Source: Escherichia coli (lineage in GTDB: Bacteria > Pseudomonadota > Gammaproteobacteria > Enterobacterales > Enterobacteriaceae). From it: a stretch of 64,000 nucleotides of DNA. The notes beneath the pieces are model-generated. The model was not told the origin of the DNA, did no database searches, and saw only the letters and a program-made list of their open reading frames with translations. A program made the translations under genes and the position numbers. Location of the stretch: assembly GCF_003334385.1 (NCBI RefSeq), contig NZ_QOWN01000002.1. One strand, 5' to 3'. Position 1 is the first letter of the stretch. Each line of letters begins with the position of its first letter. This document shows, one piece after another, positions 56,880 through 57,125 of this stretch.

Positions 56880-57082
56880 TGTAATATCCTTTCTCTTTCT
56901 TAGACAGTACCTTACGGCACTGGTGTTAATACCCGATCTTCTGCGCATCCTCGCGACTAATGACAACCCTAACCCAGCTCTATGTGGGTAAAGCCTCTCA
57001 TTAGCCGCGCGAACCTCTGCAACGGAAGATCATTCATAGCAACAATACATTAGTTTCCAGTGAATTGCTGCCGTCAGCTTGA
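56880..57082 (-). promoter_or_regulatory. pnp 5' leader / promoter region (RNase III-processed leader by established knowledge)
   Basis: About 200-nt untranslated gap between the rpsO terminator and the pnp UUG start; processing hairpin not resolved by eye. Confidence 0.5.
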
Positions 57083-57112
57083 AAAAAGGGGCCACTCAGG
57101 CCCCCTTTTCTG
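56940..57112 (+). ncRNA. sraG: Possible sRNA SraG, divergent/antisense to the pnp leader; boundaries approximate
   Basis: Plus-strand promoter-like TTAGAC-17 nt-TGTTAAT near 56901-56936, and the 57086-57109 hairpin is followed by T residues on this strand too; SraG is known to map to the rpsO-pnp spacer. Confidence 0.3.
57083..57112 (-). terminator. rpsO rho-independent terminator
   Basis: Reverse strand aagggggcc-tgagt-ggcccctt hairpin followed by TTTTTT, 15 nt after the rpsO stop. Confidence 0.7.
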
Positions 57113-57125
57113 AAACTCGCAAGAA

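Follow-up and report, generated by a model that had tools for sequence, protein, structure and literature searches.

The rpsO-pnp locus is a textbook case of layered control of an exoribonuclease, combining RNase III cleavage, PNPase autoregulation, CsrA, S1 competition and the antisense RNA SraG. The question raised by its short intergenic spacer is how these sense and antisense signals are divided between the two strands, i.e., where the antisense RNA begins and ends and which strand has been kept by selection. We consider the spacer here as it occurs in a 64,000-nt stretch of Escherichia coli DNA (contig NZ_QOWN01000002.1; hereafter "the window"), and its features are collected in Table 1. 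The 246-nt spacer is the canonical rpsO-pnp intergenic region of E. coli. Every one of its elements is already published and annotated, and there is, biologically, nothing new in it.

The open reading frames around the spacer form a minus-strand gene run of nlpI, pnp, rpsO, truB and rbfA, and an 801-nt query taken from this region finds a match in 5,426 of 5,426 complete E. coli genomes, at 99% identity or better in 5,406 of them. Positions 56860-57130 correspond to 3311149-3311419 of K-12 MG1655 (a coordinate offset of 3254289) with 100% identity over 271 nt. Across 4,001 nt MG1655 and the window differ by two mismatches, at 57306 and 57642, neither of which falls in the spacer; two differences in 4 kb mark the window as a close K-12 relative and not as MG1655 itself. 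The mismatch at 57306 (C vs T in MG1655) is within rpsO and that at 57642 (T vs C) within truB. Because the spacer is identical to that of MG1655, the published K-12 experiments are directly applicable here.

Table 1. Features of the rpsO-pnp spacer and its borders, in window coordinates.
Feature	Position	Strand	Basis or remark
pnp	54744-56879	-	ORF list
pnp start codon UUG	56877..56879	-	ORF translation, MG1655 annotation
pnp Shine-Dalgarno AAGGA (TCCTT on plus)	56887..56891	-	sequence reading
Small pnp-leader hairpin CAGUGCC-GUAA-GGUACUG	56905..56922	-	minus-strand fold
R hairpin of the pnp leader, RNase III autoregulation site	56947..57014	-	folds, consensus, Term-seq, Fontaine 2016
pnp P2 promoter region; -10 TAATGT 57052-57047; inferred TSS ~57037-57040	57037..57077	-	
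sraG (psrO, b4449) primary transcript, 216 nt	56894..57109	+	RefSeq, MG1655 identity, published cRT-PCR
Rfam SraG model span, begins at the superseded 5' end (~56936)	56938..57109	+	cmscan
PSraG, mapped promoter; -10 TAATAT 56882-56887 (overlaps TGTAAT 56880-56885); candidate -35 TTTACG 56856-56861	56856..56887	+	
Boxes of the sequence-only reading: TTAGAC 56900-56905, TGTTAAT 56924-56930	56900..56930	+	inside the transcript, not the mapped promoter
Bidirectional intrinsic terminator (rpsO T1, sraG T): AAAAAA-GGGGCC-ACUCA-GGCCCC-C-UUUU	57082..57109	both	
Terminator stem, 6 bp, all G-C: GGGGCC / GGCCCC	57088-57093 / 57099-57104	both	
Terminator A-run; C; T-run	57082-57087; 57105; 57106-57109	both	
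rpsO stop codon UAA	57126..57128	-	ORF list and MG1655 annotation
rpsO	57126-57395	-	ORF list

On the minus strand, the UUG start of pnp at 56879, first read from the letters alone, agrees with both the ORF translation and the end of pnp in MG1655 (3311168). In 93 anchored Enterobacterales loci among the matches listed the start codon is TTG 90 times and GTG three times, and the TCCTT of the Shine-Dalgarno sequence (SD) is kept in nearly all of the 43 spacers inspected. The small leader hairpin at 56905-56922, which is situated between the R hairpin and the SD, has a GUAA (GNRA) loop and a G.U pair when read on the pnp strand; on the SraG strand its loop is UUAC and the pair is a mismatched A.C. 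In other genera the hairpins at this position have, by eye, quite different sequences (e.g., GACAGCACACC...GGTGTGCTGTC), and the retention of the same small hairpin by differing sequences suggests covariation.

The pnp 5' untranslated region also holds a long, conserved and covarying hairpin on the mRNA strand, the R hairpin, whose arms recur unchanged in at least 120 Enterobacterales species and whose weaker mirror image folds in SraG on the plus strand. Two RNase III sites, RIII1 and RIII2, have been described in the leader, RIII1 being 39 nt downstream of the P2 start (Fontaine 2016, PMC5029454). Term-seq (Adams 2021) places a minus-strand 3' end with 2.2 million reads at 3311287 (56998 of the window), inside the stem of the R hairpin; this abundant end is consistent with RIII1 and, given the distance of 39 nt, would set the +1 of P2 near 57037. 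Within the P2 region, ACAATACATTA is conserved across genera. The same promoter DNA is predicted to encode a 35-nt hairpin (57072-57038, minus strand) that is present only in rpsO-pnp read-through RNA, and in this segment the minus strand is the more stable in 80 of 91 species among the matches listed. The 3' base of the R hairpin (56946-56955, minus strand) is formed by CGCGAGGAUG, almost invariant in 112 species among the matches listed, which includes a GGA motif that may be exposed only once RNase III and PNPase have processed the RNA; this GGA would fit the CsrA site of Park 2015 as it is cited in Fontaine 2016.

The sequence-only reading had also placed the antisense RNA SraG across the pnp leader, and here the Rfam match, the RefSeq sraG annotation and Fontaine 2016 are in agreement with it. 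An Rfam/Infernal scan (cmscan) finds SraG (RF00082) at 56938-57109 of the plus strand far above its gathering score (164.3 bits vs 50, E = 5e-31, model positions 1-177 of 177), between pnp and rpsO and on the strand opposite to both, and MG1655 is arranged alike. The RefSeq gene (psrO, b4449; 3311183..3311398) converts to 56894-57109, i.e., to 216 nt. SraG has been remapped by circular RT-PCR with and without polyphosphatase (Fontaine 2016, PMC5029454), work in which no clone began at the 5' end annotated in 2001, the +1 lay 42 nt upstream of that end to give a 216-nt primary RNA, and a triphosphate-dependent 5' end was found only at this upstream site, 56894 in the window. The 3' ends map to the terminator common to rpsO, with some read-through of SraG reported; the species of ~190 nt are processed forms, and expression is low (PMC5029454). 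With the PSraG -10 mutated, the 216-nt RNA was lost and the ~190-nt forms fell ninefold (PMC5029454). The Rfam model and the 2001 coordinates accordingly cut SraG short by ~42 nt, starting 42-44 nt late, and the ~42 nt that the model lacks are exactly those needed for repression of pnp translation.

The start and stop of SraG derive from the cRT-PCR and northern blots of one laboratory, together with database annotation. Among the Term-seq entries of Adams 2021 that are listed, a plus-strand psrO 3' end is absent and so, likewise, is the 3' end of the rpsO terminator; the Cappable-seq and SMRT-Cappable-seq entries listed, searched with the coordinates of both genome versions, hold no SraG TSS. 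A small protein encoded within SraG was considered and rejected, the three frames containing only short, stop-interrupted stretches. As for the promoter, the -10 mutation and the SraG 5' end are both near the SD of pnp without overlapping it (PMC5029454), and from this and the +1 at 56894 we infer the positions of the PSraG boxes. No -10-like hexamers other than TAATAT and TGTAAT are suitably spaced from T56894; both fall in the stretch that separates the SD of pnp from its start codon, and the candidate -35 is inside pnp codons 7-8.

A different promoter, TTAGAC-17-TGTTAAT (given as about 56901-56936; the boxes are at 56900-56930), had been proposed from the letters, together with an antisense transcript of roughly 170 nt, and on both points the evidence goes the other way. 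The gap between the boxes is 18 nt, the match is at chance, and with the start mapped to T56894 the boxes lie inside the SraG transcript, whose primary form has 216 nt and whose processed forms have ~190 nt. In the register proposed, only two of the six bases of TTAGAC agree with TTGACA. Read at its best, as TAGACA-18-GTTAAT (5/6 and 4/6), the site is without the critical A at -11 (position 2 of the -10), and the near-consensus hexamers, 16-18 nt spacing, -11 A and -7 T of a sigma-70 promoter are not found together there. The window has 76 sites of such quality, a density of about one in every 1.7 kb of strand, and to meet one in 250 nt of spacer is no more than chance would give. The two boxes flank the small pnp-leader hairpin of 56905-56922. 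By consensus score PSraG and the 56900-56930 site are tied at 9.5 each, and a consensus promoter scan called neither of them, its only call being rpsO P1; since the scan misses P2 as well as PSraG, simple consensus matching cannot settle promoters in this region. The proposed promoter and its ~170-nt product reproduce the superseded annotation of 2001, whose 5' end corresponds to 56936 (56894 + 42), close to the beginning of the Rfam model at 56938.

That SraG is nevertheless a primary transcript of ~170 nt, made from TTAGAC/TGTTAAT and starting near 56936, appears to us very improbable, and the idea is already largely refuted. It would accord with the Rfam start at 56938 and with the 174 nt first annotated by Argaman 2001 (quoted in PMC5029454); TG-T-TAATAC (56924-56932) could pass for an extended -10 with its +1 near 56938-56940, and the homologous site in Citrobacter is TTGACA-18-GTTAAT or TTGACG-18-GTTAAT. 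These points have to be set against the lack of any cRT-PCR clone at the old start and the removal, by mutation of the upstream -10, of the 216-nt RNA along with 89% of the shorter forms (PMC5029454), as well as against a box gap of 18-19 nt with a GTTAAT that has no -11 A, a match of the kind met about once per 1.7 kb, a good site in only 7 of 93 species among the matches listed, and a RefSeq annotation that now gives 216 nt. A less demanding reading makes 56900-56930 a weak secondary promoter, responsible for the residual ~190-nt signal (about one-ninth of wild type) that persists without PSraG. Residual SraGp is indeed found in PSraGmut, where the authors only "predict" a start 339 nt further upstream, and their "box 2" 5' ends give lengths of 174-189 nt (PMC5029454), which would fall at ~56921-56936, just past the boxes; moreover GTTAATACCCGATCTTC is fairly well conserved in Enterobacteriaceae. 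We regard this reading, too, as improbable, if less so than the former, in view of the triphosphate-dependent end that was found only at the upstream site (PMC5029454), the chance-level frequency of the motif, and the conservation of GTTAAT..., which the pnp leader of the opposite strand explains equally well.

At its distal end SraG shares a terminator with rpsO. A hairpin for the end of rpsO, bordered by an A-run and a T-run and capable of acting on both strands, had been read from the letters, and the sequence, a terminator scan and the inverted repeat bear out the hairpin, while each strand folds into a hairpin followed by Us and T1 and T have been described as "the same bidirectional terminator" (Fontaine 2016, PMC5029454). 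By the ORF list and the annotation, the rpsO and sraG transcription units converge on it. On the rpsO strand the fold reaches -22.0 kcal/mol with UUUUUU after it, vs -15.7 kcal/mol and UUUUCU on the SraG strand, where the tail is CUUUUCUG. Terminator-like sites number five in 56600-57600, vs 0.9 expected from shuffles; the scan lists the plus strand only, and it probably missed the minus-strand terminator because an extension of the stem absorbs the U-run. The core GGGGCC...GGCCCC is present in 91 of 93 species among the matches listed. The rpsO-side U-tract has 6 U in 8 positions in 86 of these 91 and the SraG-side tract has 3-7 in 8, with an uninterrupted run of only 1-5 (91 species, again among the matches listed). 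In six Erwiniaceae loci (Pantoea, Erwinia, Tatumella and Winslowiella) the terminator is 82-87 nt from the rpsO stop, compared with 19-23 nt at other loci, and the Erwiniaceae thus carry an extra segment of ~65 nt in the rpsO 3' UTR.

The explanation that best fits these elements, and one in which we have high confidence, is that SraG is transcribed from T56894 across a pnp leader that is itself cut by RNase III, and that it ends at the terminator shared with rpsO. The minus strand then has, in order, the rpsO terminator T1, the P2 promoter of pnp and a pnp leader of ~160 nt, whose long R hairpin is cut by RNase III as the opening step of PNPase autoregulation. SraG (PsrO), with its -10 between the SD and the UUG of pnp, runs for 216 nt over the whole of the leader and P2 until it stops at the rpsO terminator hairpin; as we reckon it, it would overlap the P2 transcript by ~144 nt and the rpsO-pnp read-through transcript over its whole length. 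The full-length RNA is perfectly complementary to the pnp leader as far as 3 nt from the SD, and its pairing there blocks 30S binding, creates new RNase III sites in the duplex and modestly lowers pnp mRNA and PNPase; the ~190-nt species are processed SraG that has lost its active 5' end.

The steps of this mechanism rest on published experiments with the identical sequence, and the assignment of the selected strand, taken up below, on our own comparison. The 30S toeprint is lost with full-length SraG and is kept with SraG-S, which is 42 nt shorter, and only the full-length form lowers pnp expression (PMC5029454). RNase III cuts SraG by itself at positions that mirror the pnp sites, and the duplex at new ones (PMC5029454). 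Overexpression of SraG reduces pnp mRNA, pnp-lacZ and PNPase, and in the PSraG promoter mutant pnp mRNA and PNPase rise 1.3-fold (PMC5029454), a change in which a cis effect is not fully separable from the loss of SraG because the -10 mutation is within the pnp translation-initiation region. The regulatory effect in vivo is thus small, 1.3-fold in the mutant and ~twofold on overexpression. The broader proposal that sense and antisense control of PNPase are stacked in this one spacer is supported by Rfam, RefSeq and Fontaine 2016 alike.

To see which strand is selected, we compared the spacer across the Enterobacterales with a DNA-pattern scan of GTDB representative genomes that was anchored on both arms of the R hairpin. 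The scan gave at least 120 loci, from Enterobacteriaceae, Erwiniaceae, Yersiniaceae, Hafniaceae, Morganellaceae, Pectobacteriaceae and Plesiomonas, and 93 of these could be anchored on the pnp start and the rpsO stop; in the 93, among the matches listed, the spacer measures 236-399 nt with a median of 247. Lineage-specific insertions extend it to as much as 399 nt and leave the hairpin arms and the terminator core intact. Insertions of 40-160 nt are found in the P2 region at loci of Kluyvera, Hafnia, Arsenophonus and Providencia (L013, L055 and L118), and L055 and L118 have a further insertion between the terminator and rpsO.

Where one strand has a G.U pair the other has a C.A mismatch, and non-Watson-Crick pairs therefore show the strand on which a structure has been selected. 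Among the matches listed, the stabler fold of the R hairpin is that of the pnp strand in 93 of 93 spacers and that of the SraG strand in none (0/93), with median energies of -34.9 vs -20.9 kcal/mol. The folds of the same 93 spacers (among the matches listed) contain 425 G.U pairs on the pnp strand vs 13 on the SraG strand; since ~93 of the 425 are forced by the fixed search pattern, one per sequence, it is the other ~330, together with the distal stem, that carry the asymmetry. On the pnp strand, five positions of the R hairpin are most often occupied by G.U or U.G. For the 112 distinct hairpins among the matches listed, RNAalifold gives 23 consensus pairs and -23.05 kcal/mol on the pnp strand vs 12 pairs and -11.62 kcal/mol on the SraG strand, with compensatory changes at 8 vs 2 pairs. 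Two other structured segments likewise favour the minus strand, the one in 66 of 93 spacers and the other in 80 of 91, among the matches listed. On these sequence comparisons we take the pnp leader, together with the rpsO terminator, to be what is chiefly conserved, and SraG to inherit weaker, imperfect mirror images of them.

The signals proper to SraG present a more uneven picture. A plausible PSraG (at least 4/6 in both boxes, with A at position 2 and T at position 6) is present in 39 of 93 species and an equally good site at 56900-56930 in 7 of 93, both among the matches listed, a comparison that is confounded by the overlap of PSraG with pnp codons 7-8 and with the A/U-rich spacer between SD and start codon. 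Poor -10 hexamers (AATTCT, AATCAA, AATTTT) are seen in Enterobacter, Pantoea, Erwinia, Serratia, Dickeya and Proteus. In each of 15 diverse genera (15/15) the Rfam SraG model finds a match, at 61-164 bits, and beyond E. coli the SraG and S15-leader matches are on opposite strands in 15 of 15 genera. In one Dickeya RNA-seq study SraG went undetected.

These results lend some weight to a third reading, which can coexist with transcription of SraG from T56894 in E. coli, namely that SraG is mostly a by-product, that evolution conserves the minus-strand pnp leader and the rpsO terminator, and that antisense regulation is slight or limited to some lineages. It draws on the better helices of the minus strand at all three segments, the halving of the consensus structure on the plus strand, the variable SraG-side U-tract, the limited (and confounded) occurrence of PSraG, the small effects in vivo and low expression (PMC5029454), and the Dickeya result. 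It is opposed by the toeprint and overexpression effects that are specific to full-length SraG, by an older autoregulation mutation that maps to the PSraG -10 and by a trans target reported in Yersinia pseudotuberculosis (PMC5029454), as well as by the presence of SraG among the asRNAs of the ProQ interactome. On balance we think it rather unlikely, though a good deal less so than either alternative promoter reading. We attach about the same, tentative, degree of belief to the related proposition that the Rfam family SraG is largely the pnp leader read on the wrong strand. If it is true, functional SraG is perhaps confined to a subset of lineages, e.g., Escherichia, Citrobacter, Klebsiella, some Yersinia and Photorhabdus, and SraG as annotated elsewhere would consist of unexpressed mirror images of a cis-regulatory leader. 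In view of the strand asymmetry, matches of the SraG covariance model in other genera would mainly detect the pnp leader, and are no proof of an expressed sRNA.

Several other RNA elements were recorded in the window. Upstream of rpsO there is a ribosomal S15 leader (RF00114, 117.6 bits, 57339-57453, minus strand), within which minus-strand Term-seq 3' ends at 3311707/8 (57418/9) are annotated "S15 binding", and beyond it rpsO P1 (TTGCGA-17-TAGAAT, 57504-57532, minus strand), the sole sigma-70 call of the scan in this region. A REP element of the naRNA4/CssrE type (RF02564) is found at 58966-59036, just downstream of the rbfA region, where the minus strand scores 68.1 bits and the plus strand has a weaker, palindromic match. 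The matches at the Rfam gathering threshold also include the RNase P RNA rnpB (13622-13998, minus strand, 318.6 bits), the rimP leader (63735-63835, minus strand, 102 bits) and a tRNA, presumably metY, whose match (63927-64000, minus strand) ends at the last base of the window.

The closest known system is SraG/PsrO of E. coli K-12 itself (b4449; RF00082), which has the same locus, strand and terminator, is 100% identical over 56860-57130 and shows no difference from what is described here. The RNase III autoregulation of the pnp leader (Portier, Regnier, Hajnsdorf and Carzaniga, cited in Fontaine 2016) involves the same R hairpin, at 56947-57014 of the minus strand; unlike SraG this is an element of the sense strand, and by the strand test it is the element under structural selection. 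Like other bidirectional terminators of convergent units, the rpsO/sraG terminator is a GC-rich hairpin between an A-run and a T-run that gives a hairpin and a U-tract on each strand, but it is asymmetric, with -22.0 kcal/mol and six Us on the rpsO side and -15.7 kcal/mol, a C bulge and four Us on the SraG side. RliD of Listeria monocytogenes and ref41 of Enterococcus faecalis are likewise antisense at or next to the PNPase gene, pnpA, no high sequence similarity to SraG being reported (PMC5029454). Finally, the cis-antisense RNAs GadY (with gadX-gadW) and AsflhD (with flhD) resemble SraG in forming a perfect duplex with the target, of which RNase III cuts both strands; SraG differs from GadY and AsflhD in that it also blocks the 30S subunit beside the SD and overlaps an element that RNase III attacks even without it.
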